From: Rhodothermales bacterium
GTDB taxonomy: Bacteria; Bacteroidota; Rhodothermia; Rhodothermales; BA12
DNA length: 64,000 nt
NCBI GenBank assembly: GCA_963841855.1
Contig: CAWJEJ010000004.1
Coordinates: forward strand, 588,455-652,454
Direction: 5' to 3'
The notes beneath the pieces were generated by a model. It saw only the letters and a list, made by a program, of their open reading frames with translations, was not told the DNA's origin and did not search any database. The translations under genes and the position numbers were made by a program. Shown in pieces: positions 4,318 to 37,297 of this stretch; within the stretch, counting starts at the first letter, position 1, and each line of letters begins with the position of its first letter.

Positions 4318-4343
4318 GTGCTGGAGAGGTGAGGATGAGAGAT

Positions 4344-7300
4344 TCAGCGGCCCAGCACGACGACGGTCTTGGCGACGCGCGATCCGTCGTGTTCGAGCAC
4401 GAGCAGGTACGTTCCCGCTGCCAGCGACCCGGCGTCAAGGCTCGCGTGCTGCGGTCCGGCGGCCAGCGTCCGGTCCGCGAGCAGGGCGACGCGGCGGCCC
4501 ATCAGGTCGTAGAGCGTCAGGCGTGCGTGTCCGGCCGTCGGCAGGGCGAAGGGGACAGACGAGACTCCAGTCGCCGGGTGCGGCCACGTACCGCCGAGCG
4601 TCAGGGCGAGAGTCGACACGTCGGCTTCAGTGGACGTGGCGACGGTCGACAGGTCGAGGCGGGCCAGTCCATAGGTGAAGCCTTCCTGCTGGAACGTGGA
4701 CGAATAGAGTTCTACCTGTCCGTCGGCGTCGAGGTCGGTGGCAAACGCGAGGTCGGCGTTGAGGAAGCGCGTCTGAGCGCCCAGTCCGCCGGTCCCGCCA
4801 CGGAAGATCATCAGGTCGGTGCCGCCGGTGTTGGAATCGCGAATCGTGCCGGCGAGATCGAGGACGCCGTCGCCGTTGAGGTCGACCAACTGCAGGCCGC
4901 GCAGGTCGGACGAGACGACGGTCTGCCGCTCGGGTGCGCCGAACGATCCGGCTCCGAGCGATCCCGCCGTCGACGTGTTGCGCAGCACGACCAGTTCCTG
5001 CTGGGTGAAGTCGTCGCTCGTGTATGCGCCCTTGCCGACCAGGTCGGCCTTGCCGTCGCCGTCCACGTCGCCCACGGCATCGAGAAAGAGCGAGCCGGTG
5101 AACTGGACGCTGTCGACGGCGAACGACGACGCGGACAGATCGGACGCTCCGGCGTTGCGCATTGTGACGACCAGCGGGCCAGCGGAGTTGAAGCGCGAGT
5201 AAGCCAAGTCGACTTTACCATCGCCGTCGAAATCGGCGTCCCACAACGCGACGTCGCTCTGGCTGAACAGGCGGCTGTTGTAGGGCCACGACGCCCGTTT
5301 GCCGAAGCGCAGCGCGCCCGGTCCGCTCAGGTTTTCCATCGCGACGATCTCGCCCTTGCGCAGGACGACGATCAACTCGTCGCGCCCGTCGCCGTTGAGG
5401 TCGACGGCGTTCATGCCTGCCGGTGCGGATTCGAACTCCAACTGGACGCCCGGCGCGAACGCGAGCGTGTCGCCGCTGCTGCGGTTGAGCGAGATGGTGA
5501 TCAGGCCCGACTCGTCGCGGCGGAACAGCGCAATGGCGATGTCTAAGCGTCCGTCGCCGTCGAAGTCGTGGCGCATCGTCGACTGGAGGAAGTCGCTCTG
5601 GTAGTTTGCCGCCACGTAGCCTTGCGCCGTCGCCGGTTGGCCCCAGCCGTTTCCGTTCGCAAGCGCCGGGAAGACGAGCACGTTGGTGATCTGGTCGAGC
5701 CGCATCAGGTCGACTTTGCCGTCGCCGTTCATGTCGGCCACGTCCCAGCGATTGTTGCGATTGGTGTTGCGCGTCGAGAAGAGCGTGTCGCGCCCGGTGA
5801 TGCCGTCGGGGTTGAACGGATACGTCTGCGTCCGGCTGACGCGCACGAGCGGGCCGTCCGCTGCACTCCCGCCACTCGCCACGCGCACGCGCCCGGCGAT
5901 GACCCCGCGCGGCACGCGGACGGTGAGTTGCGTCGCGGACTGCGCGGTTATTTCGCCCTCGACTAATCCGACGAACGCTTTGGCATCAGCCGCGAAGCCC
6001 GTTCCATCGACCGTAATCGACTCCCCGGCGACGACCGAACTCGGCGACACCGCAGAGATGGTCACGCCAGCGTCAGCCGCTCCGGTGGAGAACGGAACGC
6101 CCGATGACCACGGACCGGCCATCAGCCCCGCCGTCGCTCGGACGCGGGCGAACAGCGACGCGCCAGCAGGCAATCGCCGCAGCGTCAGGCTGCCGTCCCC
6201 TGTCCCGCCGACGCGCACGATGCTGGTCGAATCGAACGCCGCCGACGTGTTGACTTCGATGTGGTAGCGGAACGCCTCGGCGACGTTGGTCCACGAGAAG
6301 GTGGCGGACGCGCCGGTCACCGCAGCGGTCAGCGCGGGAGCGGTCAGAGTCGGCGTGCCCGCGATCCAGTCGACCGTTGCGGCCTCACCTTCCTGTCCCC
6401 GGTTATTGATCGCGCGGACCGACAGATGCACGCGGTTGTTGGGGCGCGTCTGGACGGGCGGAACGACGAAACTGGTATCGGACGTGACGTAGCGGGCGGC
6501 GTAATCGGCGGCGAAGCTGTTCCGCGTCTCGACGGTGACCGAGTAACGCTGAGCGGATCGGACGCTCGTCCACAGCGCAGCGATGGGACCGCTGCGCGTT
6601 GGGCTGCCTGCCGTAGGCGTGAGGATCGTCGGCTTGGGCAGATTGGCGTCGTCGAACGTGGCGAAGCGCACGAACGAGGCGCGCGCTCCTTCGCGTCCGC
6701 CCTGCGTCGAGAACATGCGCAGCTGGTAGGTCGTCGCTCCGGTGATGAGCGGCGAGGTGAGAACAGTACTGGTCACGCTGCCGCCGCGGACCGTGTCGGA
6801 GAGAATCGGGAAGAAGTCGAACACGCCGACGCTGTTCGGAACGGGGATTCCGCGCTCGAGCAGGAGCGTGTAGCCGTCGGCTCCGGCTACGGCGTTCCAC
6901 TCGACGCGGATGCCCGGGTCGAACGCGATGCCCGTTTGCCCTTGGGTCGGCGAGGTGATCGTCGGCGCGGCGATGTTGGGCGGCTCGGGCTGGGTCGTAA
7001 TCGCGATGCCCGGCGTCTCGGCCCCGGCGATCACGCCCACGCGCGCCCGGACACTCCACGTGTAGGTGCGGCTGCCTTGCAGGTTGGTGACCTTGAACGT
7101 GTCTGCGAGCGAAAAGCGCTGCGTGAAACTCTGGGGCGACGAGGCAATCGTCACGTCGTAGCCCGTCGCCCCGGCGACTGGCGTCCAAGAGAAGCGAACA
7201 CCTCGGTACGGAACGTCGGTGCCCGCCATCGGGCGGATCTGCGTCGGCGCGGCCGGCGGAGTGACGGGACTGAGCCCGCCCAACGCCAAGTCCGACGTGT

Positions 7301-8609
7301 TGAACGGCACGATGACGCCCTGCGGATAGCCCGGCGGCAGTGCGAGGAACGACTGCGATCCGTTGCGCGGCGAATCCACAAACGCAACCGCCCGAGCACC
7401 GCGCGCATCGCCTGCCCGCAGCAGCGGGTTGCCGACCGAAGCGGGCGTCGAAACCGTCAGGGTGCCGTCCGTCGACGCGTACTTGCGGACACCGACCGAG
7501 AACGTGTAGACACTTCCGGCGTCGGCCGAAAGGGCGAGGGTGTTGAAGCCATTTTCTTCGCCCGTGTTGCTCGCCCAGCGAAAAGCGCCTTGGGCCGAGA
7601 TCGATCCGAGGAATGCTTTGCTGCTATTGGTGCGACGCAGCGTGACTTCCGTCGGTTTGGATGGATCGAGCGCAACGCCCCAGAAGTCGTTGGACGAGGT
7701 CAAGCCGCCGCCCAGATATACGTCCCCGGCGGCATCGACCGTCATCGCATCCGGCGTGTCGCCGCCGACGGTCGGAGCGAAGCGCCACGTTTCGCTACCA
7801 TTCGAGGCATCGTGCCGGGCCAGCGTGTAGCCCCTGCGCCCCGTAATGTCGAGCGCGCTGAGCACGTAGATGCTGCCGCCTCCGGCCGCTAGCTGCGTGG
7901 CCCGAACCGCAGGCACGACGTATTCGACCGATCCGTCGGCGATACTCAGCGCCACGAGAGACGGCTGGTTGACCGCGACGCTGTCCGCCGTCAGGTCGAC
8001 GTCCTGCGCGCCCAGAATAGAGAGGTAGAGTCGCTGTCCATCCGAGGCGAACGGTTGCCCGATGACGAGCAGTTGCGAGTCGCTGGTGAGCGCCTGCTGA
8101 CCACCCCACTCGAGCGCGCCCGTCGCCCCGTCGAAGCGCGCCGTGAAGCCCGCCGCTCCCGCATTCGGCCCTGCCAAGCCGCGCCCGACCATCAGCGTCG
8201 CCGCCGACGGGTCGAGGTCCATCGTAGCGCCGGTCGAGAGTAACCCCTGAATCGCCACGTCGCCGTCCGGCAGGACTGCGATCAGCGTTTTGGGCGCGCC
8301 GGACTCGGCTCCGACGAAACTGAGCGCCACAAACTTGTGCGCCCACGTCAGCGCGCCCGACGCGTCGTAGCGCGCCACGAACGTCGCTCCGTTGGGCGAA
8401 GTCGTTTTGAGCGCTGCCAGCGCCGCCGTAGCGCTGAGCGCGAGCGAGTCGTCGAATACGCCAGTGACGTAGAAGCTGCCGTCGGCGGCGAGCCGGATGT
8501 CGGTAATCTCGACGCCTCCCCCCTCAAGTGCAGCGACGGGGACGGGGTATTGGGCGTAGGCAGGCGTGGCGAGAATGAGCAGGCCGAAGAGGACGGAGAG
8601 GCGGCGCAT
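4344..8609 (-). CDS. giant secreted FG-GAP/VCBS-repeat, FN3-like and IPT-domain protein with T9SS C-terminal sorting domain
   Basis: 1421 aa uninterrupted ORF with signal peptide MRRLSVLFGLLILATPAYAQ. Repeated DxNGDGxxDL / DFDGDGxxD motifs (FG-GAP/VCBS) and an IPT-like segment ISAVSPSSVVAGESITVDGTGF. C-terminus LTLYDLMGRRVALLADRTLAAGPQHASLDAGSLAAGTYLLVLEHDG is typical of the T9SS type-A CTD. Confidence 0.85.
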   Translation of the reverse strand: MRRLSVLFGLLILATPAYAQYPVPVAALEGGGVEITDIRLAADGSFYVTGVFDDSLALSATAALAALKTTSPNGATFVARYDASGALTWAHKFVALSFVGAESGAPKTLIAVLPDGDVAIQGLLSTGATMDLDPSAATLMVGRGLAGPNAGAAGFTARFDGATGALEWGGQQALTSDSQLLVIGQPFASDGQRLYLSILGAQDVDLTADSVAVNQPSLVALSIADGSVEYVVPAVRATQLAAGGGSIYVLSALDITGRRGYTLARHDASNGSETWRFAPTVGGDTPDAMTVDAAGDVYLGGGLTSSNDFWGVALDPSKPTEVTLRRTNSSKAFLGSISAQGAFRWASNTGEENGFNTLALSADAGSVYTFSVGVRKYASTDGTLTVSTPASVGNPLLRAGDARGARAVAFVDSPRNGSQSFLALPPGYPQGVIVPFNTSDLALGGLSPVTPPAAPTQIRPMAGTDVPYRGVRFSWTPVAGATGYDVTIASSPQSFTQRFSLADTFKVTNLQGSRTYTWSVRARVGVIAGAETPGIAITTQPEPPNIAAPTITSPTQGQTGIAFDPGIRVEWNAVAGADGYTLLLERGIPVPNSVGVFDFFPILSDTVRGGSVTSTVLTSPLITGATTYQLRMFSTQGGREGARASFVRFATFDDANLPKPTILTPTAGSPTRSGPIAALWTSVRSAQRYSVTVETRNSFAADYAARYVTSDTSFVVPPVQTRPNNRVHLSVRAINNRGQEGEAATVDWIAGTPTLTAPALTAAVTGASATFSWTNVAEAFRYHIEVNTSAAFDSTSIVRVGGTGDGSLTLRRLPAGASLFARVRATAGLMAGPWSSGVPFSTGAADAGVTISAVSPSSVVAGESITVDGTGFAADAKAFVGLVEGEITAQSATQLTVRVPRGVIAGRVRVASGGSAADGPLVRVSRTQTYPFNPDGITGRDTLFSTRNTNRNNRWDVADMNGDGKVDLMRLDQITNVLVFPALANGNGWGQPATAQGYVAANYQSDFLQSTMRHDFDGDGRLDIAIALFRRDESGLITISLNRSSGDTLAFAPGVQLEFESAPAGMNAVDLNGDGRDELIVVLRKGEIVAMENLSGPGALRFGKRASWPYNSRLFSQSDVALWDADFDGDGKVDLAYSRFNSAGPLVVTMRNAGASDLSASSFAVDSVQFTGSLFLDAVGDVDGDGKADLVGKGAYTSDDFTQQELVVLRNTSTAGSLGAGSFGAPERQTVVSSDLRGLQLVDLNGDGVLDLAGTIRDSNTGGTDLMIFRGGTGGLGAQTRFLNADLAFATDLDADGQVELYSSTFQQEGFTYGLARLDLSTVATSTEADVSTLALTLGGTWPHPATGVSSVPFALPTAGHARLTLYDLMGRRVALLADRTLAAGPQHASLDAGSLAAGTYLLVLEHDGSRVAKTVVVLGR

Positions 8610-8730
8610 GGGCGTGGCGGAAAGATTCGCCTGTACGCTACCTCAGCGCCTGCCTGCCGCGCGTCCCCGGATTCGGGTATTTGCGGCGCTTCGATCTCTT
8701 GCGCTATCCGATGCCCTGGCGTTTGCCTCC

Positions 8731-9469: not shown

Positions 9470-10519
9470 GTGTCCCTCGTTTCCCACCTCCGCGCGATCC
9501 CGTCCGCTGCCGGCTACTATGGCAAAGGGATTCTCAAGGAGATCGAGACCAAAGACATCTTCGTCTTCAGCCAGGCGATCGCGTTCAAGGTGCTCGTCAC
9601 CATCGTGCCGCTGCTCGTGCTCGCGACGGGTATCATCGGCCGCTTCCTCAAGCAAGACGAGCCGTTCGAGGTCGTCGAGGGGGTCGTGCGCGACTTGCTG
9701 CCGGGCGGGCAGAGCGAGCAGATCCTGTCGTTTCTGCGCGATTTGCAGAGCGCCTCGGGCACGATCACCATCGTCGGCATCTTGGGCACGCTCGTCGCCG
9801 TGATCACGCTGATGACGACGCTGAGAGCCGTCGTGCGGGGCATCTTCGCCGAAGCCTACCGCGACGCGCGCAGCCTTCTGGGCGGCTACGCCTTCGACGC
9901 GCGGATGGTGGTGCAGGTCGGCGCGCTGTTTCTGCTCTCGATCTCGATCACAGTCGCCTCGCAGTGGCTGAGCGGAACGGGTGAGGACGTGATCCGCTGG
10001 TACGCGCTCGACTGGGAGTGGCTGTTTCAAGGGTGGAGCGTGCTCTTCACCGTCGTCGGGCTGGTCCTGCCGCTATTCGTGACGACGGCCATGTTCGGCC
10101 AGTTGTACTACTTCGTGCCGCGCCCGCGCCCGCCCAAACGCAGCGTCGTGCGGGGCGCGCTGGTGGCCGCCACGCTATGGGAAGCCGCCAAATACGCATT
10201 CGCTCTCTACGCGACGCACGTCGCCGGCTTCGACCTGGGCAGCACGTTCGGACTGATCCTGGCCTTCGGATTCTGGATCTACTACTCCGGCCTAGTGCTG
10301 TGCATCGGCGCGCTGATCGCCCTGATCGACGAGAAGCGGCTCCGCGCCGAGCAGAGCGACCGAGCGCAGGCCGAAGAGCAAGGCGCCGACTCGCTCACGC
10401 CGGACGGTAAAAAACTCGCGCATACGCCGATGCCCGTCCTTCCCGGCGACGACTCGGACGTTGCTCCTGCCACGCCGGACGATCCGTCTACCGGTCAGCC
10501 CTCTCGCACCAACGTTTAG
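9470..10519 (+). CDS. YihY/BrkB (virulence factor BrkB) family inner-membrane protein
   Basis: GTG start. FSQAIAFKVLVTIVPLLVL plus multiple TM helices is characteristic of the YihY family. Acidic and Pro-rich C-terminal tail. Confidence 0.85.
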   Translation: MSLVSHLRAIPSAAGYYGKGILKEIETKDIFVFSQAIAFKVLVTIVPLLVLATGIIGRFLKQDEPFEVVEGVVRDLLPGGQSEQILSFLRDLQSASGTITIVGILGTLVAVITLMTTLRAVVRGIFAEAYRDARSLLGGYAFDARMVVQVGALFLLSISITVASQWLSGTGEDVIRWYALDWEWLFQGWSVLFTVVGLVLPLFVTTAMFGQLYYFVPRPRPPKRSVVRGALVAATLWEAAKYAFALYATHVAGFDLGSTFGLILAFGFWIYYSGLVLCIGALIALIDEKRLRAEQSDRAQAEEQGADSLTPDGKKLAHTPMPVLPGDDSDVAPATPDDPSTGQPSRTNV

Positions 10520-12665
10520 CGCTCTCTTGTCCGCTCCCCGCGCGCTCGCCTGCTGCCTGCTCCTCTTCCTCGCGCCTCGCGTGTGGGCGCAAAACCCTGC
10601 GCCCGAGCGCGAAGGGCCGCCGCTGTTCCTGATCGACAAGAAGACAGAGATCGACCGGCTTTCGTTCACTTTCGAGGGGAGTGAGACGTTCAGCGAGAGC
10701 GAACTGGTCGAAGGCGCGCTGCTCGCCACGACCGAACCCACGTTTTTGGATCGCCTGACGAGCACGCTGCTCTTTTGGAAGTCGCTCGACCGGGCGCTGC
10801 TCGTCCCCATCGAAGTGCAGAAAGACGTGGCTCGCCTGCGCGAATTCTACAAGCAGCGCGGATTTCCCCAGGCGCGCATCGACTATGGCGGCAGCACGCT
10901 GGACACGGCGTCCAACCGCATCCACATCGTCTTCGACATCGCCGAAGGGCCGCCGACGAACGTGCGCAGCCTGCGCTACCAGAACAAGGACGGCGTCACG
11001 CTGGACAGCCTGTTCAACAGAGCCATCGTCGGCGCCCAGTCGGCGGATCGGTGGCGCCGGTTTCGAAACGAACTGCCGACGCGCCCCGGCGAGCGCTTCA
11101 GCACGTTCGACTTCTCGGTCACCAAGGGGCAGGTGCTCGACTTCACGCGCGACCGAGGTTTCGCTTTCGCCTCCATCCAAGCCGACTCGACGATTTCGTC
11201 CGACCAGCGGCTGATCGACCTCACGGTGACCGTCAACTTGGGGCCGCGCGCGACCGTCGACTCGGTCTTGATCAGAGGGAACGAGTCGGTCGCCGACCGG
11301 GTGGCGCGGCGCGAGGTGCCGTTGCAAGTCGGAGACCGCTTCAGCCAGAGCCGCCTGATCAACGGGCAGCGCAACCTGTTCGCCCTGCCGATCTTCCGCA
11401 TCGCCGTGGGCCTGGTACCCGACCAGCCAGCCGACTCGACCGTCACGATCCTCTACGAAGTGCGCGAGGCCGACCTGCGCCTGTTTCGCGCCCAGACGGG
11501 CTACTCGCGCGAGGAGGGCATCGTGCTCCAACCCTCGATCGAGCACCGCAACTTCATGGGCAGCGCGCGCTCGCTGGCCCTGGCCGCCGAGTGGCGCACG
11601 ACGATCCTCGCCACGACGGCCGGAGATTTCAAGCCGGTCCGCCGGCTCGATGTGCAGGCGACGCTGACGCAGCCGTTCGTCTACCGCCGCGACCTCTCGG
11701 CCATCGTGGCGCCGTTCTACCGCTTCGAGGACAACGACAACCTGGGCATCGGCTACCGCGAGGTGGGGCTGAACACGACGCTGATCTACGAGATCATGCC
11801 GTTTCGCACAGCCAACCTGCGCTATACGTTTGCCAAGACCTTTCCGCTGAGCGTGCGCGACGCCGTCTCTCGGAGCGCCTTCAACCGAAGCATCTTTGGA
11901 GGCAGCGCCACGCTCGGCAAGGTCGACGACTTCTTCCAGCCCACCGACGGCACGCTCTACCGCCCCGGCTTCGAGTTGGCGGCGGGCCTGCTGGGATCGG
12001 GCGTCGAGTACGCCAAGGCCGAGTTGAACGTCGCCCACTATAGGCCCCTGAGCAGGCGCGTGCAGGGCGGCGTTCGGCTCTATGGCGGCTACATCAAGCC
12101 GTTCGGAGCGAGCGCCGATCAGTTCGACCCGGTCGTCGAGTACCGCTTCGACCTGATACGCTTCTATGCTGGCGGCTCGTCGGACGTGCGCGGGTGGGGA
12201 CTACAACAGCTGGGCCCCAAACTCATCATCGCCGACACCGTCGCGCTGGCCGCTGGGCCGACAGGCACCGATCCGGCTCAGCCCACGCAGGTTCAGAACT
12301 TTCTCTACGAGGCCGTCGGCGGCACGTCCAAGGTGGCGACCAACGTCGAGATACGCACGCCCTTTCCCGGACTGAGCGACAACTGGCGCGCCGCGTTCTT
12401 CCTGGATGGCGCCTACCTCAACGCCGCCGAGGGCGGCAGAGGCTTGTACGATGCCAGCCAGTTGCGCGTCGGCACGGGCGCAGGCATCCGCTACCTGACG
12501 CCGATCGGCTTTCTGCGGCTCGACGTGGGCTTCAAAGTCAACCCCGCCGAGTCGGACGTGCACTCGGCCGAGGATCTCTACCGCAAACGCTTTCTGGGCG
12601 AGGATGTCAAAGCCAGCACGTGGCGCCGGTTCGCGCTCCACCTGAGCATCGGGCAGGCGTTCTGA
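10461..12665 (+). CDS. Omp85-family outer-membrane protein (BamA/TamA-like, POTRA domains plus beta-barrel)
   Basis: POTRA-like N-terminal modules (IHIVFDIAEGPPTNVRSLRYQ, LTVTVNLGPRATVDSVLIRGNE) and a surface-antigen barrel ending GFLRLDVGFKVNP...ALHLSIGQAF. The true start may be the TTG at 10527, just after the yihY stop, giving signal peptide SAPRALACCLLLFLAPRVWAQ. Confidence 0.85.
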   Translation: MLLPRRTIRLPVSPLAPTFSALLSAPRALACCLLLFLAPRVWAQNPAPEREGPPLFLIDKKTEIDRLSFTFEGSETFSESELVEGALLATTEPTFLDRLTSTLLFWKSLDRALLVPIEVQKDVARLREFYKQRGFPQARIDYGGSTLDTASNRIHIVFDIAEGPPTNVRSLRYQNKDGVTLDSLFNRAIVGAQSADRWRRFRNELPTRPGERFSTFDFSVTKGQVLDFTRDRGFAFASIQADSTISSDQRLIDLTVTVNLGPRATVDSVLIRGNESVADRVARREVPLQVGDRFSQSRLINGQRNLFALPIFRIAVGLVPDQPADSTVTILYEVREADLRLFRAQTGYSREEGIVLQPSIEHRNFMGSARSLALAAEWRTTILATTAGDFKPVRRLDVQATLTQPFVYRRDLSAIVAPFYRFEDNDNLGIGYREVGLNTTLIYEIMPFRTANLRYTFAKTFPLSVRDAVSRSAFNRSIFGGSATLGKVDDFFQPTDGTLYRPGFELAAGLLGSGVEYAKAELNVAHYRPLSRRVQGGVRLYGGYIKPFGASADQFDPVVEYRFDLIRFYAGGSSDVRGWGLQQLGPKLIIADTVALAAGPTGTDPAQPTQVQNFLYEAVGGTSKVATNVEIRTPFPGLSDNWRAAFFLDGAYLNAAEGGRGLYDASQLRVGTGAGIRYLTPIGFLRLDVGFKVNPAESDVHSAEDLYRKRFLGEDVKASTWRRFALHLSIGQAF

Positions 12666-12799
12666 GCCGCACTTCGCCGGCGCGCGGGCTTCGCTCGATC
12701 TGCGCGTAACCATCTGTCTCTTAACGTCTACGGCACAACGCGGCATACCGGGCCAACCGATCTTGCCGTTCTCACCTGCCCCACCGCTTCCCACTCCCA

Positions 12800-15700
12800 A
12801 TGGAGCCTGACCGCCCCATCCTGCCTCCCGACGCCGACGCTCTCTCGGCGGACGCGCCGCACACCAGATCCAGGCGCTCGGTCTTGGGATGGATCGGACG
12901 CATCGTGGGCGGGCTGCTGCTACTGATTCTGCTCGTCGTGGGCGGCCTGCTGCTGTGGTTGCAGACGCCGACCGGAGCCGAGAAGACGCTCAACTACCTC
13001 GCCGACCAGTTCAACCCGTACGAAGACGCGACGCTGAACGTCGAGAGCGTGAGCGGCAACTGGCTCTCCAACCTGTCGCTCTACGGACTGAGCCTGACGC
13101 GCGCCGATGGATCGTCGATGGCGCAGATCGACTCGCTCGAACTGGCCTACAACCTGCTGGCTGTTCCTGGAGGCCGGCTGCACCTGCGCGACGTAGTCTT
13201 GAGCGGCGCCCTGCTCGATATCCGCGAGGGCGCCGAAGGCGTTCGACATCGCTCTGCCGTTTCTGCCCGATACGCTCGCCGCCGACACGACCCAGGGCGG
13301 CCTGATCATCCAGGTCGACCACGCCGAACGTGCGCCGCACACGCGCCGACATCAGGTTCTACACGCCGCCGCCATCGGCCGACTCGACGCTGACGATCTC
13401 GGACGTGACCTTATCGGCTCACGACTTCTTTCTGGGCGAAGAACTGGCGTTCGAGGTCGACACGCTGGCCCTGGCCTATGCCCTTCCGCGCGGCCAGGGC
13501 GCCGGTCAGATCGACGCCGGAGCGAGCCTGGACGACAACCTGCTCGCGCTGCGCAGTTTCCGCCTGGCTTCGGACGATTCGGACCTGTTCGCCGAAGGCA
13601 CCGTCCGCCTCCCCGACCCGGCGGCGCCGACGCGGGCGACGGCGACGAGGACGCCGACATCCTGCGCGACCTCGACTTCACCGTCCGCGCCCAGCCGCTG
13701 GCGTTCAGCGACCTGTCGCTCTTCCTGCCCGACCTGGATCCGTCGCGCTCGGTCTCGGTCGTTGCCGACGTGCAGGGCAACCTCAACGAGTTGATCGTCG
13801 ACGTGGACGGCGAGTTGTCGGACGGCGCGACGTTCGATGGAGGGCACGGTCGCTCCGCCCAATCAGGGCACGCCGGTGGCGTTCGATTTGGACGGACGCG
13901 TGCGCCGGTTGGATCTGGGCTTCTTCGGCAAGGCGGGCGAGCCGTCGCCGGGCGTTCTGAGCGGAACGTTCTCGACCGACTTGCAGGGCGCCGACCTCGA
14001 GACGATCGGCGGTACGGCTCAGGTGCGGTTCGTCGACACGCGCGTTGCCGATTTCGATCTGGACCGCACGCGTTTGGACGTGAGGGCCAGCCAGGGCACG
14101 TTCCGGCTCGACCTGCAGTCCGGCACGCGCGGCGCGACGCTCGCCACCACGGGTACCATCCGCCCCTTCGCCGACACGCCGAGCTATGACCTCACGGGGT
14201 CGTTTTCGGACCTCGACTTGGCCGCATTCACCGACGGCGAGCAGTCGAGCGATCTCAACGGCACGTTCCGGCTCGACGGCAGCGGCTTCGATCCAGAGAC
14301 GATCCGGGCCGATGTGGGTCTGACACTGGCCGACGCGCGCGTCAACGCCTACACCATCCGCAGCGCCGACCTGGACCTGAACGTGCGGGGCCAGCAGATC
14401 AGCGGACTGGTCGCCGCCAGCCTTCCCGAAGGCAGCCTGCGCGCCGATCTCTCGGCCGACCTGAGAGGCGACGTACCGTCGTACCGCGTCACGGATGGCG
14501 TGTTGACCGGCCTCGACGTAGCCGCGCTGATCGGCGACACGACCAACAGTCGCATCAACGCGCGCTTCCGACTGGCTGGCAGAGGAACGGACGTGCAGAC
14601 GATGACGCTCGACGCGACCGCGCGCCTGGACGACACTGTCTGGGGCACCTATGTCGTCCAGTCCGCCGACGTGACCGCCGCGCTGCGCAGAGGCCGTCTG
14701 GACGCCGACGTGGACGCCGACCTGGAAGGCGGCAGCTTCGATCTGGCGCTCTCGGCCCGTCCGTTCGGCGAGCCGCTCACGTATCAGGTCGACAGCGGCT
14801 CGTTCGCCAACGTGAACCTGGCGCGCCTACTCAACAACCCCAGTCTCACGTCCGACCTGACAGGCACGATCTCGGCGAGCGGGACGGGCGTCGACCCCGA
14901 AACGCTGTCGCTCGACGCGCGCGTCACGCTGGCCGACTCGCGCCTGAACGGGCAGCAGATCGACGCGGCCAACGGCGTCATCGCAGCGCGAAGCGGCGAC
15001 TTCGACTACGACTTGGGACTGGAGACGCCCGAAGGCCGGACCCAACTGGCAGGCACACTGAGTCTGAGGGCGACGAGCTGGCCCTCGAACTGCGCCAGGG
15101 CACGTTCGCGGGCCTCAACGTCGGAGCGCTGCTGGGCATCGACTTCCCGACCAACCTCAACGGGACCGGCACGCTGTCGCTCAGAGGCACCGATCCGCAG
15201 ACGATGTCGCTCATCGCCGACCTGCAACTGACGCGCTCGCGCGTCAACACGCTCGACTCATTCCGGTCGGCTCGCTTGATGCCACGCTGCGCGACGGATT
15301 CGCAGACGTGAGCGCTCGGCTCGGATTGGTGCAGGGCGTGATCGCTGTCAACGCCGAGGGACGCTTTTTCGACGCCGTGCCCACGTACCGCGCCGACGGC
15401 ATCGTCTCCAACGTCAACGTGACCCAATTGGCCGGACTGGACTCGGTCGACGCCGCGCTCGATTTGCGCTTCGACGTCGAGGGCCAGGGCATCGACCCCG
15501 AAACGATGACGGCGCGCCTGACGGTCGTCGGCGACACGTCGCGCTACGAAACCATCGACATCTATGGCATCGACGCTCGGGCGCGCATCGCCGGAGGCGT
15601 GGTGACGGTCGACGCGCTCGAATTGCAGTCCAACGCCGCCGATCTGGCGGGCGAGGGCACGATCGCGGCGTTCGACACGATGGGCGCCGTTTCAGACTTC

Positions 15701-18052
15701 GAACTGGCCGCCCAGTTGCGCAGCGTCGACCCGGTCCGCCCGTTCTTGCCCGACGTGCCGCTGAGCGTCGAGAGCGGACAGGTGACGGCCAGCATCACCG
15801 GTCCGCGCGGCGCGCTTCTGGTCGAAGCGCAAGGGTCAGTCGCGAGCGCGGTCTACGACGCCTACCGCGCGGGGGCGTCAGCGGACAGTTCGCGGTCGTG
15901 CTCGACAGCGAGTTCGCCGTCCAGAGCGCCAACGCCGACGCCGACATCGGCTACTTCTCGATGCCCAACGCTCATCCTGCGAAGCACCGACCTCGAGGTC
16001 GACTACGACGGATCAGGAATTGGTCTTCGACGCCCGAGTCGAGGCCGACGATCGCCGCGACGCGCGTCTGGCAGGCGTGTTCGACTTGCGGCCCGAAGCT
16101 CAGGTCGTCCGGTTCGACTCGCTCAACCTGCGGCTCGACGGCGAGCGCTTCCGCCTGCTGCTGCCCGCCACGGTCAGCTACGCCGACGGCTATCGCGTAA
16201 GCAACTTTCTGCTCGTGAGCGACGATCAGCAGATCGCCATCGACGGCGTCGTCGACCCACGCGGCGAGCAGAACTTGGTCGCCACGTTCGACGGGCTGCG
16301 GCTCGACGGCTTCACCGACCTGTTGGGCTACGGTCGGTCGGCGGAACGCTCGACGGCTCGGTCGACCTGACGGGTCCGGCGTTTGCGCCCGTTCTGCAGC
16401 AGCACGCTGAATCTGGACCTGGTGTCGCGCGGCGATGCCGTCGGCACGCTTGACTTCGAGGTGAACTACGACGACCTGCGCCTGGATACGGACGCCACGT
16501 TTACCCACGCCGACGGCTCGACGCTGCTGCTGACCGGTTACGCGCCAATCGACCTGAGCCTCGACACGCCCGAGCGCGACCGAAGCGACGACGGGCGCTC
16601 CCGAAGGCGTGCGCTTGCAGGCAGCCGCCGGGCCCGATGCCGGCGGCGTCGACTTCCAGATCATCGCCGACTCGTTCTCGGTCGGCTGGATCACGCCGTT
16701 TCTGCCGGACCGCGTCGTGACCGACTTCGGCGGCAAACTGACCACACCCGAGGAGATCACGATCACAGGCACGTTCGCCGACCCGATCCTGGGCGGCGGC
16801 GCGACGTTGAGCAACGGACGGCTCGGACTCGTCGCGACCAACCTGACGTACCGCGACATCACCGCCGCGCTGGAACTCGAAGGCAACCGCATCAATGTGC
16901 GCGATCTGTCGCTGCGCTCGGGCAGTGGACGAGCCGATGCCGAGGGAACGCTCCAATTCGAGAAGTTGAGCGTCGGCGATCTCGACTTGCGCGTCAACGG
17001 CCGACGACTTTCTGGCCATCGACAACCAGCAGTTTCGCTTCGTCGCCGACGCGGCGATGAGCGTGAAAGGCACCACCAACGCGCCTACTATCGAGGGCCG
17101 AGCGCGCGTGCTATCGGGTGACGTTTACCTCGACGGTGCCACGCAGTTCGAAGCCATCGCACTGACCGACGAAGACATCCTCAACGTCGAGTCGACGTTC
17201 GGCATTCGGGTCGAGGCCGCCGACACGACGACCAACAAAGTCATCGACCGACTGACGCTCGACATGGACATCACGCTCGAGCGCGACAACTGGATTCGGC
17301 AAGAGTCCAGCCCCCAGATCGACATTCAGTTCAGCGGCGACATTCAGGCCATCAAGAACCCCGGCTCCGAGTTCAACTTGTTCGGCAACATCGGCATCAT
17401 ACCCGAGCGCTCGCGCATCGTCCAGTTCGGGCGCAAGTTTCAGATCACCGACGGCACGCTCGACTTCAACGGGCTGATCCTGGAAACCAGCCTTAACCTG
17501 AACGCCGAGTTCGTCGTCTTCAAACCGAGCACGCGCGAGCAGGTCGCCGTTATCACGCTGGGCGTGCGCGGACGTCTGAACGCGCTCAACGAGCAGAACG
17601 CGATCACGCTCGGCAGCGAGCCGCAGATGGAAACCGCCGACATCGTCAGCTACATCGCTACCGGCCGCCCGGCCAGCCAGAGCCTGGCGCTGGGTAGCGA
17701 CGGCGGCGGCGGAGGCGGGTTAGCCAACCAGGGCCTGGGAATCGCGGCGGGCCAACTCGCGGGCCTGATCCAGGGCGCGGCGGGCAACGGACTGGGACTG
17801 GACGTGATCGAAATCGAGCAGGACGGTACGCGCGGCACGCGACTGACGGCGGGCAAGTATCTTAACCGTCGCTTCTTCGCCAGTTACTCTCAGCCGATTA
17901 CCTACGGCAATACCAACGAAGAGGGCAACTCGGGCGCTTCGCAGCAGCCCACCATCACCATCGAGTACGAACTGGCCGACTGGCTTCTCGCCCGCCTGCT
18001 CTACGACCGCGCCATCTTCCGCCTCAACTTCCAGACGGAAACCTCTTTCTAG
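12800..18052 (+). pseudogene. tamB: TamB-like translocation and assembly module protein (AsmA-like/DUF490), disrupted by about 13 frameshifts
   Basis: N-terminal anchor GGLLLLILLVVGGLLLWLQTP. Long repetitive beta-rich body (GTFRLDGSGFDPETI, RFRLAGRGTDVQTM, ISASGTGVDPETL, LSLRGTDPQTM, FDVEGQGIDPETM). DUF490-type C-terminus (FFASYSQPITYG...IEYELADWLLARLLYD). Continuity requires frame switches near 13240, 13328, 13620, 13840, 15066, 15258, 15872, 15968, 16012, 16335, 16393, 16572 and 17003. The track fragments 12800.., 13330.., 13770.., 13837.., 15308.., 15898.., 16020.., 16383.., 16609.. and 17057.. are its pieces. Confidence 0.8.
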
Positions 18053-18058
18053 ACGCCC

Positions 18059-18862
18059 ATGGGATTCCGCTCGACGCCTGGCGCCACCAACTCGTTCTTC
18101 AACCAGCTGCTCATCCGCACGGGTGATCTGGCGATGTTCGCAGGGCGCTTCTTCAACCGCTTTTGGCGGCGCCGTTTCGAGTGGCGCGAACTGCTCCGGC
18201 AGATGGACGAGGCGGGCACCAAAAGCTTTTTGCTGACAGCCGTTACGGGCTTCGCCATTGGCATCGTGCTGGCGCTTCAGAGTAGGGGCACGCTGGCGCG
18301 TTTCGGCGCTGAGGCCGTTCTGCCCAACATGCTCGTGCTCTCGATCTTCAAGGAGATCGGACCCATCATCACGAGTCTGGTGCTGGCCGGGCGGTTGGGC
18401 GCGGGCTTTGGCGCCGAAGTGGGATCGATGAAGGTCACCGAGCAGATCGAAGCGCTCGAAGTGGCCGCCCTCAAGCCGTTCAACTACTTGGTCGTGACGC
18501 GCGTGCTGGCGTGCGTCATCATGTTTCCGGTGTTGACGATCTGGACTGACTGCATCGCCATCTTCGGCGGCTACCTCGAAAGCGTGCTATCCGTCGACGT
18601 GGACTACCGCGTGTTCCTGTTCACCGCGTTCGAGACCATCCGCCTCACCGACCTGATCGTCGACACGATGAAAACGAGCGTGTTCGGATTCATCGTCGGA
18701 TTGGTGTCGTGCTACCTGGGCTACACGGTCAGAGGCGGCACGCGAGAGGTCGGCCAGGCGGCGATGCAGTCGGTCGTCATCTCGTCGCTGCTCATCCTGA
18801 TCGCCAACGTTCTGATCGTGCAGCTTTCGATCACGCTCTTCGGCGACATCTCCGGTAACTGA
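18059..18862 (+). CDS. mlaE: MlaE-family ABC transporter permease
   Basis: GxxSFLLTAVTGFAIGIVLALQS...KVTEQIEALEVAALKPFNYLVVTRVLA matches the MlaE/Ttg2B family. Confidence 0.9.
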   Translation: MGFRSTPGATNSFFNQLLIRTGDLAMFAGRFFNRFWRRRFEWRELLRQMDEAGTKSFLLTAVTGFAIGIVLALQSRGTLARFGAEAVLPNMLVLSIFKEIGPIITSLVLAGRLGAGFGAEVGSMKVTEQIEALEVAALKPFNYLVVTRVLACVIMFPVLTIWTDCIAIFGGYLESVLSVDVDYRVFLFTAFETIRLTDLIVDTMKTSVFGFIVGLVSCYLGYTVRGGTREVGQAAMQSVVISSLLILIANVLIVQLSITLFGDISGN

Positions 18863-18863
18863 C

Positions 18864-19724
18864 ATGACCGAATCGCTCAACCATACCGCTTACGACGGCT
18901 CTCCTCCGCCCGTCGACACGCCCGACGGACGCCCGCCCGCGTTCGCTCTGGGTAGTGGCCCGCCGCCCGACGACATCGTGGTAGAGCTGCGCGATGTGTA
19001 CAAAGGTTTTGGCGAAAAAGAGATCTTGAAAGGCGTCTCGTTCGACGTGCCGCGCGGCCAGAGCGTGCTCGTGATGGGCGGATCGGGAACGGGAAAGAGC
19101 GTCACGATCAAGCACGTCGTCCAGCTACTCGATCCTGACGCGGGCGAAGTCTGGGTGCTGGGCAAACGAGCCGACCAGCTAGAGCAGGACGCGATGGACG
19201 AGTTGCGCCTCAAAATCGGCTATCTGTTTCAGAGCGGCGCCCTGTTCGATTCGATGACGGTTTACGAGAACCTCGACTTCATTCTAGGGCGCCACACCAA
19301 GCAGCCTGCCGGCGAGCGGCGCGAGCGCATCGAAGAGACGCTGAACTGGGTCAACCTGATCGACTCCGCTGCGCAGTACCCGTCCGAGCTGTCGGGCGGG
19401 CAGCGCAAGCGCATCGGACTGGCCCGCTCGATCATCCTCGAACCCGAGATCATGCTCTACGACGAGCCGACGACCGGGCTGGACCCGATCAGCGTGCGCG
19501 TCGTGAGCGACCTGATCACGCGCCTGCGCGACGAGCGCGGCATCTCGTCCATCGCGATCACGCACGACATGCTCTGCGCCGAACTCATCGCCGACCGCAT
19601 CTACTTTATCCAGGACGGCGTCATCGGCGCCGCCGGAACGCTCGACGAGGTCCGCGAAAGCAGCGTTCCCGACATCCGTACGTTCTTCCAGGCGAACGAT
19701 CCATCCATCGCCGTCTCCTTCTGA
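18864..19724 (+). CDS. mlaF: ABC transporter ATP-binding protein (MlaF-like)
   Basis: Walker A GGSGTGKS, signature LSGGQRKRIGLAR, Walker B MLYDEPTTGLD. Starts 1 nt after mlaE. Confidence 0.9.
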   Translation: MTESLNHTAYDGSPPPVDTPDGRPPAFALGSGPPPDDIVVELRDVYKGFGEKEILKGVSFDVPRGQSVLVMGGSGTGKSVTIKHVVQLLDPDAGEVWVLGKRADQLEQDAMDELRLKIGYLFQSGALFDSMTVYENLDFILGRHTKQPAGERRERIEETLNWVNLIDSAAQYPSELSGGQRKRIGLARSIILEPEIMLYDEPTTGLDPISVRVVSDLITRLRDERGISSIAITHDMLCAELIADRIYFIQDGVIGAAGTLDEVRESSVPDIRTFFQANDPSIAVSF

Positions 19725-19761: not shown

Positions 19762-20973
19762 ATGCCTCGTCAAGCCCGCGTCGGCCTTCTCGTACTCGCA
19801 GGAGCCGGCCTGTTCATGGTAGCGCTCTTCACGATTGCGCAGCGCTCGTTTCTGCTGAGCAACACGTTCAGCGTCGAGACCTCGTTCTACAACGTCGCCG
19901 GACTGGTGCCGGGAGCGCCGGTGCAGTACCAGGGCGTCAACGTCGGGCGCGTCGAGGGCGTGATCCTGCCTGCTCAGCCGGGCGGTAAGATCCGTGTCGA
20001 GATGCAGCTCGAGGAGGACGTGCAGCACTTGATTCGCTCGAACACGCAGGCCCAGGTGCAGTCGGACGGGCTAGTCGGCAACATGATCATCGTGCTGCTC
20101 GCCAACACGGCTCAGGCGCCGCCGATCGAGCCCGATGGCGCCATTCCAGGTCTCGAGCCCTTCTCGCTGACCGACGTGACCGACCGGGCGCTCACGAGCG
20201 TGCAGGCGTTCAACGAGATCGCCGAGACGTTCCAGCTCATCCTGTCCGACGTGCGCAACGCCGAGGGCACGATCGGCAGCCTGATCTACGATCCGGCGCT
20301 CTACAACAGCCTCGTCGCCACGACGACCGAGACCGAAGCTCTGCTGGGCCGACTGGGGCAGAGCGCCGAAAACATCGTTCAGAGCGCCGAAAACACGACG
20401 GCTGGGCTGGACGAGATGCTCAACAAGATCAACAACGGCGACGGCTCGCTGGCGCTGATGCTCAACGACCCGGCGTTCTACAACCAACTCGTCGCAGCGT
20501 CGGACACGCTGCTCGCCGTCACGCGCGACGTGAGCTTCGTCACGTCCAACCTGGAGGAGGCGACTGCGTGGGGATCGGTCGCCGCCTTCCGCGCGGCCGA
20601 ACTGACCGAAGCGCTCCAGCAAAACTTCCTGTTCAAGCGCTACTTCGAGGAGCGCGGCTATACCAACCAGGCGCCGTTCGAGGTGCGCGAGCGCGCCATC
20701 CGCAGCAGCCAGCGCGAGATCGAGGAGCAGCGCCGCGCCCTCTACGAGTGGCAACTGCGCGTCCAGGAACTCATCGACCGGCTCGAAGCCCAGGGCATCC
20801 AGGCCCCGCCGCCGCCCGAAAAGCTGCCCAACTCGCTGCCGACGCCCGCGGGCCAGACTCGGCCGGTCGATACGAGCGGCGCATCGTCCGCCGTGCCTAC
20901 CATGCGCACGCCCGACGCGGCGGGTGATCTCACCTGGATTCCGCAGTCTCCGTCCTTGGGGCAGCGCCGGTGA
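19762..20973 (+). CDS. mlaD: MCE/MlaD-family substrate-binding protein with long coiled C-terminal region
   Basis: N-terminal TM helix then MCE domain (YNVAGLVPGAPVQYQGVNVGRVEGV...SDGLVGNMIIVL). Third gene of the mla-like operon. Confidence 0.85.
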   Translation: MPRQARVGLLVLAGAGLFMVALFTIAQRSFLLSNTFSVETSFYNVAGLVPGAPVQYQGVNVGRVEGVILPAQPGGKIRVEMQLEEDVQHLIRSNTQAQVQSDGLVGNMIIVLLANTAQAPPIEPDGAIPGLEPFSLTDVTDRALTSVQAFNEIAETFQLILSDVRNAEGTIGSLIYDPALYNSLVATTTETEALLGRLGQSAENIVQSAENTTAGLDEMLNKINNGDGSLALMLNDPAFYNQLVAASDTLLAVTRDVSFVTSNLEEATAWGSVAAFRAAELTEALQQNFLFKRYFEERGYTNQAPFEVRERAIRSSQREIEEQRRALYEWQLRVQELIDRLEAQGIQAPPPPEKLPNSLPTPAGQTRPVDTSGASSAVPTMRTPDAAGDLTWIPQSPSLGQRR

Positions 20974-22361
20974 ACGGAGAGCCGCAGATCCCCAGCAGAG
21001 GCGGGCGCCGCTCGGCATTCGAGACGGTCGCGTTTGGCGGCGCGATGCTGCTGTTTCTGTTTCTGATCTATGACCTGCACGCCTTCGACGGGAAGCAGAG
21101 TTATCTGATCGTTCCGCTCGTGGCCGTCTCGGGCGGTATTCTCGCATGGCCGATGCGCGACCACCAGGCCGTGCGTGCGCTGCTGATGGCGGGCGGATTA
21201 GTGGTGCTGTTGTGGCTCGGACAGCAACTCTTTAGCGTCCTGCTGCCCTTCGCGATCGTCTATCTGCTGGCGTTTTTGTTCGAACCGTTGGTGGCCCGCC
21301 TGCACGACAAACGCAAGGTGCCCCGGTGGGTGAGCGCGCTGGGCATCGTGGCGCTCCTGCTCGGCGCCTTCGGCGGACTGCTGACGTTCGTCGTGCCGAC
21401 GCTGCTGGACGAAACGCAGAACCTGATCAGCCGCCTCGTCGGCGTCGTGGGCGACCTGCGGCAATGGGCGCTCACCTCGCCCGCGCTCGACCGCATTACC
21501 GAAAGCGGACTGATCGACCGCGAGGTGCTGGTCAACGAGGTATCTCAGGCCGTCCAGAGTACGCTGATCGGAGCCGGTGGTGATATTCCGCGCGCCGTCA
21601 ACGGTGTCGTGTCGCGCATCGGGAGTCTGCTGAGCGCCTTCACCATCCTGTCGATCATGCCGGTCGCTCTCTTCTACCTGCTCAAAGACTACCCCTTTAT
21701 CACACGGCGCGTACGCGAGCTGTTTCCGACGTTCGGGGGCAAGCGCGACTACCTCGTCACCGCGAGCGTCGTAGTGGGCGATTACCTGCGCGGCCAACTC
21801 ATCATCTCGTCGATCGCAGCGTTCAACGTCGGCCTGCTGCTGCTGCTGTTCGGCTTTCCCTACGCGATCCTGATGGGGCTGATCGCCGGAGTGCTCAACC
21901 TGATCCCCAACATCGGCGCTCTCCTGACGATGGCGCTGGGGGTCGTGGTAGCGCTGATCTTCGGCGACCCGATGACCAAAGACCTGCTCATCGTCGTGGG
22001 CGTGCTGGCGGGGCAGGCGCTCTTGGAGGGCAGCATCCTCTCGCCGACGATCCTGAGCCAGCAGGTCGGCCTGCACCCGGTCCTGATCCTGATCTCGCTG
22101 TTCGTGTTCGGCTTCTTCATGGGCATCATCGGCCTGTTCGTCGCCGTACCGATCACGGCCATCGTGATGACGCTCTACAAGTCGTACCGCGACCAGATGC
22201 ACCTGGATCTGCTCGACTACGCCGACGGGGCGAGCACGTCGACTTCGCATTCGCCGCGTAGTTTCTCGTTCTCCACGACCCGGCCCGATTCCGCCACGGA
22301 CGCATCTGACGCAGTCATCGCCTCCGACCCACCTCCGATCGATGACGAACCTGCAGGCTGA
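20970..22361 (+). CDS. AI-2E family transporter (PerM/UPF0118)
   Basis: GTGA overlap with mlaD. Polytopic membrane protein with NLIPNIGALL and GLFVAVPITA motifs typical of the AI-2E family. Confidence 0.85.
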   Translation: MNGEPQIPSRGGRRSAFETVAFGGAMLLFLFLIYDLHAFDGKQSYLIVPLVAVSGGILAWPMRDHQAVRALLMAGGLVVLLWLGQQLFSVLLPFAIVYLLAFLFEPLVARLHDKRKVPRWVSALGIVALLLGAFGGLLTFVVPTLLDETQNLISRLVGVVGDLRQWALTSPALDRITESGLIDREVLVNEVSQAVQSTLIGAGGDIPRAVNGVVSRIGSLLSAFTILSIMPVALFYLLKDYPFITRRVRELFPTFGGKRDYLVTASVVVGDYLRGQLIISSIAAFNVGLLLLLFGFPYAILMGLIAGVLNLIPNIGALLTMALGVVVALIFGDPMTKDLLIVVGVLAGQALLEGSILSPTILSQQVGLHPVLILISLFVFGFFMGIIGLFVAVPITAIVMTLYKSYRDQMHLDLLDYADGASTSTSHSPRSFSFSTTRPDSATDASDAVIASDPPPIDDEPAG

Positions 22362-25854: not shown

Positions 25855-26330
25855 CGCGCACCTCGCCGCCGCGTCCCGATTGGTCGAGCGCCGAGTCGTT
25901 CGAGCGTTTTCTGCACGCGCACCTTCCGCCAGCCCGGGCGCTCGGCGTCCGCGTCGGCCTGCTGGGCGAAGACCGCGTCCGACTGATCGCACCGCTCGCG
26001 TCGAACAGCAACCATAGAGGCGTCGGCTTTGGCGGTAGCGCGTCGGCACTGGCTCTTCTGGGGGCGTGGGCTGCTCTCCAGCGCGCGCTCGACGCAGAGT
26101 TCGGCGATGTCGAAGCCGTCGGCGGCTACGCGTCGATCCGCTTCCTCAAACCGATGCGCAGCGATCTGATCGTCGAGGCGAGAGCGCCCACTGGATGGCG
26201 AGAGGCGGCGCAGTATGCTCAGGCTGTCGGCAAGACCGAGATCCAGGCGTCGTGCATTGTGACGAGTGGAGAGCGCCAGGGTGCCGCCGCCGACGCTACC
26301 TTTGTCCTGCTCGCCCCGTTTCGCTGGTAG
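25851..26330 (+). CDS. YiiD_C-like thioesterase-fold protein
   Basis: GTG start forming a GTGA overlap with the ispH stop. FLHAHLPPARALGVRV...NHRGVGFGGSASALALLGAWA resembles hotdog-fold thioesterase-domain proteins. Upstream track extension (from 25743) rejected. Confidence 0.6.
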   Translation: MTRTSPPRPDWSSAESFERFLHAHLPPARALGVRVGLLGEDRVRLIAPLASNSNHRGVGFGGSASALALLGAWAALQRALDAEFGDVEAVGGYASIRFLKPMRSDLIVEARAPTGWREAAQYAQAVGKTEIQASCIVTSGERQGAAADATFVLLAPFRW

Positions 26331-26349
26331 CGACCGCCTCCCTCCGCCC

Positions 26350-26901: not shown

Positions 26902-26903
26902 CG

Positions 26904-34891: not shown

Positions 34892-34910
34892 CGACCCCTT
34901 GCTCACGAAT

Positions 34911-35261: not shown

Positions 35262-35376
35262 CCCACGGCTGCGGGCGACGCAAAGGCGGGCGGTTTTGCT
35301 CTGCGTCAGGTGCGGCGATCACATTGCCCGCTCACCCTTCGGCGCGGTTTGCGCACCAGAGTTTTATCTGTAATGC
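35255..35376 (+). repeat. attC-like structured repeat, copy 1
   Basis: GGTGTAACCCACGGCTGCGGGCGACGCAAAGG...TTTGCGCACCAGAGTTTTATCTGTAATGC. Alignable over its full length with copies 2 and 3. Confidence 0.6.
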
Positions 35377-35436
35377 GGCTTGCCGAACCGTGTCGGCAAG
35401 ACAGAGTTGGGAGGAGCTCAACCAGTCGCCAAACCA

Positions 35437-35900: not shown

Positions 35901-35904
35901 AGAC

Positions 35905-36432: not shown

Positions 36433-36435
36433 AGC

Positions 36436-36554: not shown

Positions 36555-36579
36555 AGCGCTACCATCTGACCGCTCAAAT

Positions 36580-37260: not shown

Positions 37261-37297
37261 TCTTCTTGTCATTCGGAGTGGATTGTGAGCAAGTCTA

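Follow-up and report, generated by a model that had tools for sequence, protein, structure and literature searches.

The window, by which we mean the whole stretch of 64,000 nucleotides analysed here, lies on a contig of 791 kb, a size that fits a long-read assembly. On its forward strand is a tamA-tamB-mlaEF locus in which tamB is broken into many frame segments and its neighbours are intact. The features of the locus are as follows.

10461-12665, + strand: tamA, 734 aa, intact; outer-membrane partner of the Omp85 family, with POTRA repeats and an Omp85 barrel
12800-18052, + strand: tamB orthologue, 5253 nt (1751 codons), in 14 frame segments as assembled
12881-12961, + strand: N-terminal hydrophobic stretch of TamB, a putative signal anchor, aa 28-54 (VLGWIGRIVGGLLLLILLVVGGLLLWL), from the translation read by eye
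13236-16999, + strand: indel-bearing span, with all 13 indels in 3.76 kb, one per ~290-315 nt
14278-15545, + strand: five repeated modules of ~100 aa each, with the motif G-x-D-P/V-E/Q-T-M/I/L
16918-17989 (approximate), + strand: C-terminal TamB/DUF490 domain (PF04357), converted from aa 1370-1726 of the corrected protein
18059-18862, + strand: mlaE-like permease, intact
18864-19724, + strand: ABC ATPase, intact

The tamA product matches PF01103 at 2.6e-34 and PF07244 at 2.6e-18, and is 85-86% identical over its full length to its orthologues in two related Rhodothermales MAGs, L001 and L002 (~83% DNA identity), against which it has no frame-breaking indel. The tamB start lies 134 nt downstream of the tamA end, and both MAGs share this arrangement. 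The two genes that follow tamB match PF02405 (permease, 2.9e-68) and PF00005 (ATPase, 1.1e-31), each reads in a single frame, and they are 92-95% identical to their orthologues; they give the tamAB pair an envelope-lipid context. The identification of the broken gene as a TamB is supported by the adjoining Omp85-family TamA partner with its Omp85 and POTRA domains. A first-pass annotation of this DNA, made from the letters alone, had already placed tamB beside an intact Omp85/TamA partner, and Pfam matches on both genes bear this out.

When the frame is corrected, the protein is similar in length to the TamB orthologues of L001 and L002, which are intact (1749 and 1755 aa). Its N-terminus gives weak matches to DUF748 and YhdP, which are both AsmA-like and both below the cut-off. 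In the middle of the protein the module motifs occur at aa 495, 595, 696, 798 and 896, and an off-diagonal tblastn match at 26-29% identity also indicates internal repetition; the repeat motifs quoted in the first-pass annotation can all be found in the corrected translation, ~100 aa apart. The DUF490-type C-terminus that it had described is the Pfam TamB/DUF490 domain. The C-terminal ORF alone matches PF04357 with 115.2 bits and the corrected protein with 138.6 bits (4.3e-40), both above the Pfam gathering threshold of 22.4 bits, and repair of a single frameshift (junction 13 below) extends the match from profile positions 55-360 to positions 8-360 of 381.

As assembled, none of the three forward frames is open throughout 12800-18052, the frames having 15, 26 and 28 stops, and translation from the ATG at 12800 ends after 197 aa at the stop at 13391-13393. 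In tblastn searches the intact TamB proteins of L001 and L002 nevertheless tile the entire gene in alternating frames. The breaks were placed in a three-way MAFFT alignment of the DNA of the window, L001 and L002, which gave 13 frame-breaking indels specific to the window, each of 1-2 nt and none longer. All are on the + strand.

13236-13237, + strand: junction 1, -2 nt; the site holds 3 nt in L001, 0 in L002 and 1 in the window
13327, + strand: junction 2, +1, an extra A (GAACG vs GA-G/GA-C)
13619-13620, + strand: junction 3, -1 (CCC-GG)
13836-13837, + strand: junction 4, -2 (TTCG--ATGG)
15068-15069, + strand: junction 5, -1 (GAG-GGC)
15254-15255, + strand: junction 6, +2
15871-15875, + strand: junction 7, -1 at 15873, a base lost between two G runs, giving GGGGG
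15970, + strand: junction 8, +1
16013, + strand: junction 9, +1 (GGATCAGG vs GGG-CAGG)
16333-16334, + strand: junction 10, -1 (CGG-TCGG)
16397, + strand: junction 11, +1 (CTGCAGC vs CTC-AGC)
16576-16588, + strand: junction 12, +1, placement ambiguous within ~12 nt because L001 and L002 put the gap at different sites
16999, + strand: junction 13, +1 (AACGGCC vs TAC-GCC), inside the Pfam TamB domain

Each of these indels lies within a few nucleotides of one of the 13 frame switches that the first-pass annotation had listed, and the frame order that it gave, 2-0-1-0-1-0-2-1-2-0-2-0-1-2, is reproduced from the indels by position mod 3. It had also proposed alignment to the tamB orthologues of relatives, which places every indel and assigns all 13 to the lineage of the window. 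Shifts of both signs are present, as it had stated, with seven insertions and six deletions (8 nt gained and 8 nt lost); the net length change of zero is too probable by itself to serve as evidence. Three of the indels are of 2 nt. The single homopolymer junction that it had named, GGGGG, is the event at 15873, and the other 12 of the 13 lie outside homopolymers. With 13 edits tamB reads through 1750 codons with no internal stop. The coding sequence between the junctions had been described as well preserved, and codon bias is indeed intact in every fragment: in a codon-usage frame plot the coding frame switches at the indel sites, and the fragments score 0.45-0.70, equal to intact genes.

Under a uniform distribution of indels over the ~57 kb of coding DNA, all 13 would fall in this 5.25 kb with a probability of ~3e-14. 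Within tamB they spread over 72% of the gene, and a range test against a uniform distribution over the gene gives p ~0.08, so that finding them only in 13236-16999 does not discriminate between the hypotheses discussed below. No correlation of the indels with local divergence was found across tamB, and no common motif, methylation-site context, slippery site or secondary-structure cue was visible at the 13 junctions, the motifs and methylation sites having been compared by eye. An Rfam scan found no structured RNA in the window. The other long genes of the window are uninterrupted and the neighbours of tamB intact, as had been claimed; the frame plot, the orthologue alignments and Pfam agree on this, and ~55 kb of other coding DNA contains no frameshift. 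Suspected frame switches at 22.2-24.1, 25.8-27.5, 33.1-34.8, 40.5-42.2 and 58.3-61.1 kb resolved into distinct genes, all intact, which have full-length matches in Pfam or signal peptides of their own.

The two sister MAGs are informative in a further way. Both are MFD-LR MAGs, assembled from Nanopore reads only with Flye (--meta --nano-hq) and one round of Medaka (PMC12313526). In L001 tamB is intact, while a different long gene is riddled with indels. This gene, at ~1.8-6.2 kb of the L001 locus on CAWFGU010000015.1, is the orthologue of the intact 4.3 kb T9SS-cargo gene of the window, and it has 16 L001-specific indels of 1-2 nt, 14 of them within 1.5 kb; after correction no stop remains. 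The Nanopore reads of L001, MFD03250, are public. The T9SS gene of L002 has one isolated 1-nt insertion, and the orthologue of an AI-2E transporter has isolated 1-nt insertions outside homopolymers in both L001 and L002. Searches of proteins, genomes, metagenomes and contigs yielded no independent assembly of this species in which the tamB ORF is intact. The genome scan returned two species-level relatives, L001 and L002, with the same species not among them; a metagenome scan with the corrected TamB turned up only a 29% relative; a 464 aa ORF of the window had as homologues in the protein database itself and one 37% match; and a search for contigs encoding three window proteins returned none.

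The indels of tamB do not come with an excess of substitutions. On the window branch tamB has a dN/dS of 0.20 and the intact tamA one of 0.18. Inside the indel span 119 of the 342 window-unique changes (34.8%) are at codon positions 1+2, against 59 of 171 (34.5%) in tamA, and over the whole gene the excess of such changes is not significant (odds ratio 1.24, p = 0.21). Of random substitutions, 2.3% would produce a nonsense codon, yet the corrected frame has none. Purifying selection on tamB is thus not relaxed in the lineage of the window, and the damage to the gene consists of indels only. The lack of a substitution excess in the span caps the number of neutral substitutions at ~30, as a rough estimate, against 13 indels.

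The first-pass annotation had left three options: recent pseudogenisation, a local assembly or consensus defect, and a process that targets this gene for indels. Our results favour the defect, make pseudogenisation the less favoured reading and lend no support to a targeting process. Damage by indels alone, together with the same pattern at another gene in a sister MAG built from Nanopore reads only, makes local consensus error the most likely source, and we consider it probable that the 13 frameshifts are a localised long-read consensus defect in the deposited sequence and that the tamB of the organism is intact. The organism would then carry an intact tamB of ~1750 codons within a tamA-tamB-mlaEF envelope cluster, and the errors would be confined to ~3.8 kb of the deposited consensus. 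The contig would be a long-read metagenome assembly, probably of Nanopore type, in which one segment may have been polished from too few reads or from mixed strain haplotypes, for example where a strain bubble collapsed in a variable envelope gene. The outcome would be random indels of 1-2 nt near the raw-read rate (~0.25-0.35%) in a contig that was otherwise polished cleanly. Junction 1, with 1 nt where the relatives have 3 and 0, has the look of a consensus built over alleles that differ by 3 nt in length. Indels left over in Nanopore consensus sequences have been documented to give frameshifted gene calls, and at Nanopore R10.4 coverage above ~40x there is little further gain from polishing with Illumina short reads (PMC9262707). 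Counting against a consensus defect are the position of most junctions outside homopolymers, the classic context of Nanopore error, the three 2-nt events, the clean state of the other coding DNA of the window, and the fact that the searches turned up no second assembly of the species with an intact ORF. Given this clean remainder the defect has to be sharply local, and a local cause of that kind is assumed.

A genuine and very recent pseudogenisation, in which tamB was inactivated and then collected the 13 small indels, with selection maintained on tamA and the neighbours, seems to us unlikely. It accounts well for the distribution of the damage, as a single dead gene would look just like this, with all 13 indels in one gene and the rest of the 64 kb intact, and their spread over the gene is compatible with uniformity; the deposited sequence, moreover, cannot encode TamB, which would stop at 197 aa. 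It is the quality of the damage that argues against decay. Constraint is not relaxed relative to tamA, codon positions 1+2 carry no excess of changes in the span, the corrected frame is free of nonsense codons, no indel exceeds 2 nt, there is no deletion bias and the length is kept to the nucleotide. The partner tamA is also intact and constrained. In mutation-accumulation work small indels occur at ~5-30% of the substitution rate and are concentrated in homopolymers. At such rates 13 neutral indels would be expected to come with ~40-130 or more substitutions, a number that is not seen, and decay would need far more indels per substitution than ordinary mutation spectra show. The indel-only cluster in a different gene of the Nanopore-only L001 adds to this, since two parallel real events would be required.

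That small indels cluster densely in one long envelope or surface gene of each of two related genomes, in tamB of the window and in the T9SS-cargo gene of L001, could also be taken as circumstantial evidence for a biological process in this Rhodothermales clade that makes or tolerates substitution-free small indels in long, repetitive envelope or surface genes. Such a process may be a locus-targeted error-prone synthesis, or a restoration of frame at the level of RNA or translation that keeps the genes functional, and the perfectly kept coding signal between the junctions of both genes is in its favour. Across the 13 junctions, however, no shared motif could be seen, nor a slippery site or secondary-structure cue, indels of both signs and both sizes occur, and isolated indels of the same kind are found in the unrelated transporter gene of L001 and L002. 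The affected gene differs between the sisters and each orthologue is intact elsewhere, as expected of random technical failures. We know of no bacterial system that repairs 13 mixed frameshifts, and regard this explanation as extremely improbable.

If the frameshifts are an artefact, the gene for a 1750 aa envelope-biogenesis protein would be mistaken for a pseudogene or cut up into at least seven hypothetical ORFs, and inference on the envelope or metabolism of this lineage would wrongly score TamB as lost. At least one of the tamB fragments, the ORF of 464 aa, has already entered public protein databases. The failure mode of long-read MAGs at issue is the dense, local cluster of non-homopolymer indels in a long variable gene, which quality checks focused on homopolymers miss. 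If instead the indels are real, this is ordinary gene loss, odd in that it leaves an intact TamA without its partner.

The locus resembles the known TamA/TamB module in the C-terminal TamB domain, the putative hydrophobic N-terminal anchor and the long repetitive middle of the protein, and in the position of tamB directly downstream of an Omp85/POTRA gene. The E. coli TamB, at ~1260 aa, is shorter than the ~1750 aa of the TamB described here. The intact TamB of known systems is one continuous ORF, whereas the copy in the window as deposited has none. Frameshift pseudogenes of decaying genomes, such as those of Mycobacterium leprae and host-restricted Salmonella, likewise have multiple frameshifts and intact neighbours. 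Real pseudogenes also show relaxed dN/dS, nonsense codons, varied indel sizes and a deletion bias, none of which is found in the tamB of the window. With Nanopore-only Flye and Medaka assemblies the window shares a signature of 1-2 nt indels without accompanying substitutions. The classic residual errors of Nanopore sequence occur in long homopolymers and genome-wide, whereas here 12 of the 13 events are outside homopolymers and all are within 3.8 kb. Such clustered, non-homopolymer indels point to coverage or haplotype resolution that failed locally and not to systematic basecalling error.

The window has a GC content of 65%, and tamB, at 12800-18052 on the plus strand, has no open forward frame, the three frames holding 15, 26 and 28 stops. 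An ORF listing gives overlapping plus-strand ORFs strung across different frames, the last of which (17057-18052) matches the Pfam TamB/DUF490 domain (5.4e-33). Directly upstream of tamB is:

10461-12665, plus strand: tamA, encoding an intact Omp85/POTRA protein

The order tamA, tamB, mlaE-like permease, ABC ATPase (10461-19724, plus strand) ties the TAM pair to a Mla-type lipid-transport module, and it is kept in both of the Rhodothermales MAGs that we obtained by a genome scan using TamA:

L001: CAWFGU010000015.1, MFD03250.bin.2.54, TamA identity 85-86% (range for both MAGs)
L002: CAWBZG010000005.1, MFD03250.bin.1.109, TamA identity 85-86% (range for both MAGs)

In both MAGs tamA is followed by a single uninterrupted ORF (1749 aa in L001, 1755 aa in L002), and in tblastn these TamB proteins cover the window gene end to end with the frames alternating. 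A protein homologue search and a metagenome scan with the corrected TamB found no second assembly of the window's species. In a three-way MAFFT alignment of window, L001 and L002, tamB pairwise DNA identity is 82.5-83.5%, and 13 window-specific indels with lengths not a multiple of three were placed in the gene:

13236: -2
13327: +1
13619: -1
13836: -2
15068: -1
15254: +2
15873: -1
15970: +1
16013: +1
16333: -1
16397: +1
~16576: +1
16999: +1

As 8 nt are gained and 8 nt lost, the length stays 5253 nt. Only the event at 15873 lies in a base run (GGGGG). In a codon-usage frame plot trained on the window's intact genes, the coding frame flips at the indel positions. The first-pass annotation had described tamB as readable only through 13 frame switches, and this observation is fully confirmed: the aligned indels agree with its junctions within a few nucleotides and reproduce its frame order, and all the repeat motifs it quoted were found, spaced by ~100 aa. 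The sole window-specific tamB indel with a length that is a multiple of three is an in-frame 3-nt GGC-repeat insertion at 17698-17706, which extends a stretch of glycines (GGGGGG) within the C-terminal domain of TamB.

With the 13 indels removed, tamB has 1750 codons and no internal stops. Against the TamB domain the repaired protein scores 138.6 bits over profile positions 8-360, compared with 115.2 bits over 55-360 for the C-terminal ORF alone; junction 13, the most 3' of the frame switches, therefore interrupts a conserved domain. Substitutions on the window branch were estimated by the Nei-Gojobori method with three taxa (window, L001 and L002):

tamB, window branch: dN 0.0495, dS 0.247, dN/dS 0.20
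tamA (intact), window branch: dN 0.0505, dS 0.285, dN/dS 0.18

Changes unique to one lineage at codon positions 1+2 number 164, 160 and 126 in tamB for window, L001 and L002, and 59, 63 and 49 in tamA. The window share of these changes is 34.8% (119/342) in the indel-bearing span (13236-16999) versus 34.5% in tamA, an excess of ~1 change with an estimated upper bound near 20. Essentially no extra substitutions thus accompany the 13 indels. The corrected tamB contains no nonsense codon, though 2.3% of random substitutions would yield one; its indels include none longer than 2 nt and show no deletion bias, and its codon bias is intact. Neutral bacterial decay that gave 13 small indels would be expected to leave several-fold more substitutions and varied indel sizes. 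The damage is unlike that of an aged pseudogene; for the lesion to be real, it must be extremely recent and oddly confined to indels.

The rest of the window is clean, as had been claimed for the neighbouring and other long genes. The frame plot revealed no same-strand frame switching within any of them, and three-way alignments of the syntenic flanks revealed no window-specific frame-breaking indel in well-aligned coding regions. Neighbouring suspects were rejected as frameshifted genes, since each proved to be a separate gene, either matching a Pfam family over its full length or carrying a signal peptide of its own. The 4.3 kb gene at 4344-8642 (minus strand) is intact; its FG-GAP, fn3 and TIG domains, with a weak Por_Secre_tail match below the cutoff, suggest a T9SS cargo protein. 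All 13 indels fall in 5.25 kb of ~57 kb of coding sequence, which excludes uniform scatter (~3e-14).

Other features were seen elsewhere in the window. A 298 aa ORF at 3538-4434 (minus strand), with a moderate coding signal and without a Pfam match, has many non-multiple-of-3 indels among the three genomes, including a window-specific +1 near 4198, in an alignment just 72-78% identical; these may reflect noise in the alignment, mistakes in one or more of the three assemblies, or a gene that is fast-evolving or spurious. The ~3 kb at 34900-37900 has lower GC (~0.60), a nearly absent codon-usage signal, only short ORFs, none with a Pfam match, and no Rfam match; the stretch may be of foreign origin, hold small genes with an atypical composition, or be non-coding. 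Two tandem lipoprotein-like genes on the plus strand (26266-26901 and 26823-27464) lie in different frames with a 79-nt overlap and share a similar C-terminal W-R-L-x-x-W-x-D-E motif; we rejected a single frameshifted gene here and read them as paralogues. In a 768 aa ORF at 54920-57226 (plus strand), with a weak codon signal and no Pfam match, a signal peptide (MTERLSYWCAVMLLLSGPLALCVRAQ) comes after an internal Met, which suggests that the gene begins near 55.39 kb; its predicted product may be an outer-membrane protein.

Indel damage is also present in the two MAGs. The L001 orthologue of the T9SS-cargo gene (L001:1800-6200) carries 16 L001-specific indels of 1-2 nt, 14 of them inside ~1.5 kb and mostly not in homopolymers, and with these removed it has 1430 codons and no stops. 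This damage parallels that of the window tamB in a different gene; tamB is intact in L001 and the T9SS-cargo gene is intact in the window. Isolated +1 insertions outside homopolymers disrupt otherwise conserved genes whose window copies are intact: the AI-2E transporter gene (window 20970-22361) in L001 (window position ~21255) and in L002 (~21562), and the T9SS-cargo gene in L002 (~4629). L001 and L002 come from the Microflora Danica long-read catalogue, whose assemblies use Nanopore reads only (Flye --meta --nano-hq, then one round of Medaka polishing; PMC12313526). Indels left in the consensus of such assemblies have been documented to cause frameshifted gene calls, and above ~40-fold Nanopore R10.4 coverage little is gained from Illumina short-read polishing (PMC9262707). 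Random local failures of the consensus predict this picture, in which sister long-read MAGs have indel-only clusters in different genes and every such gene is intact in the other genomes; lineage-specific gene death does not predict it.

We therefore consider the tamB frameshifts likely to be a localised consensus artefact, the one favoured among the three options raised by the first-pass annotation. Both tests that we ran agree with it: the damage is indel-only, and the same pattern occurs in assemblies of known platform. A genuine recent pseudogene is improbable, as neither relaxed selection nor a mixed lesion spectrum was found. Still further down the scale, a process in this clade that directs indels to long, repetitive envelope genes, or a tolerance of them there, is very improbable and has no positive support. 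A consensus artefact could have arisen if polishing over a ~3.8 kb stretch in tamB drew on very few reads or on a mixture of strain haplotypes, as might happen where an assembly bubble at a variable envelope gene is collapsed; this would leave indel noise near the raw-read level (~0.3%). Junction 1, the most 5' of the frame switches, is one hint of this, with 1 nt in the window versus 3 in one orthologue and 0 in the other; a 3-nt length polymorphism merged into one consensus would give a similar result. The window is part of a 791 kb contig, which fits a long-read assembly. The result is best taken as a warning about the quality of this assembly. By domain, synteny and full-length orthologues the window gene is a tamB orthologue, and it departs from TamB solely in its want of a continuous ORF, in the deposited sequence only.
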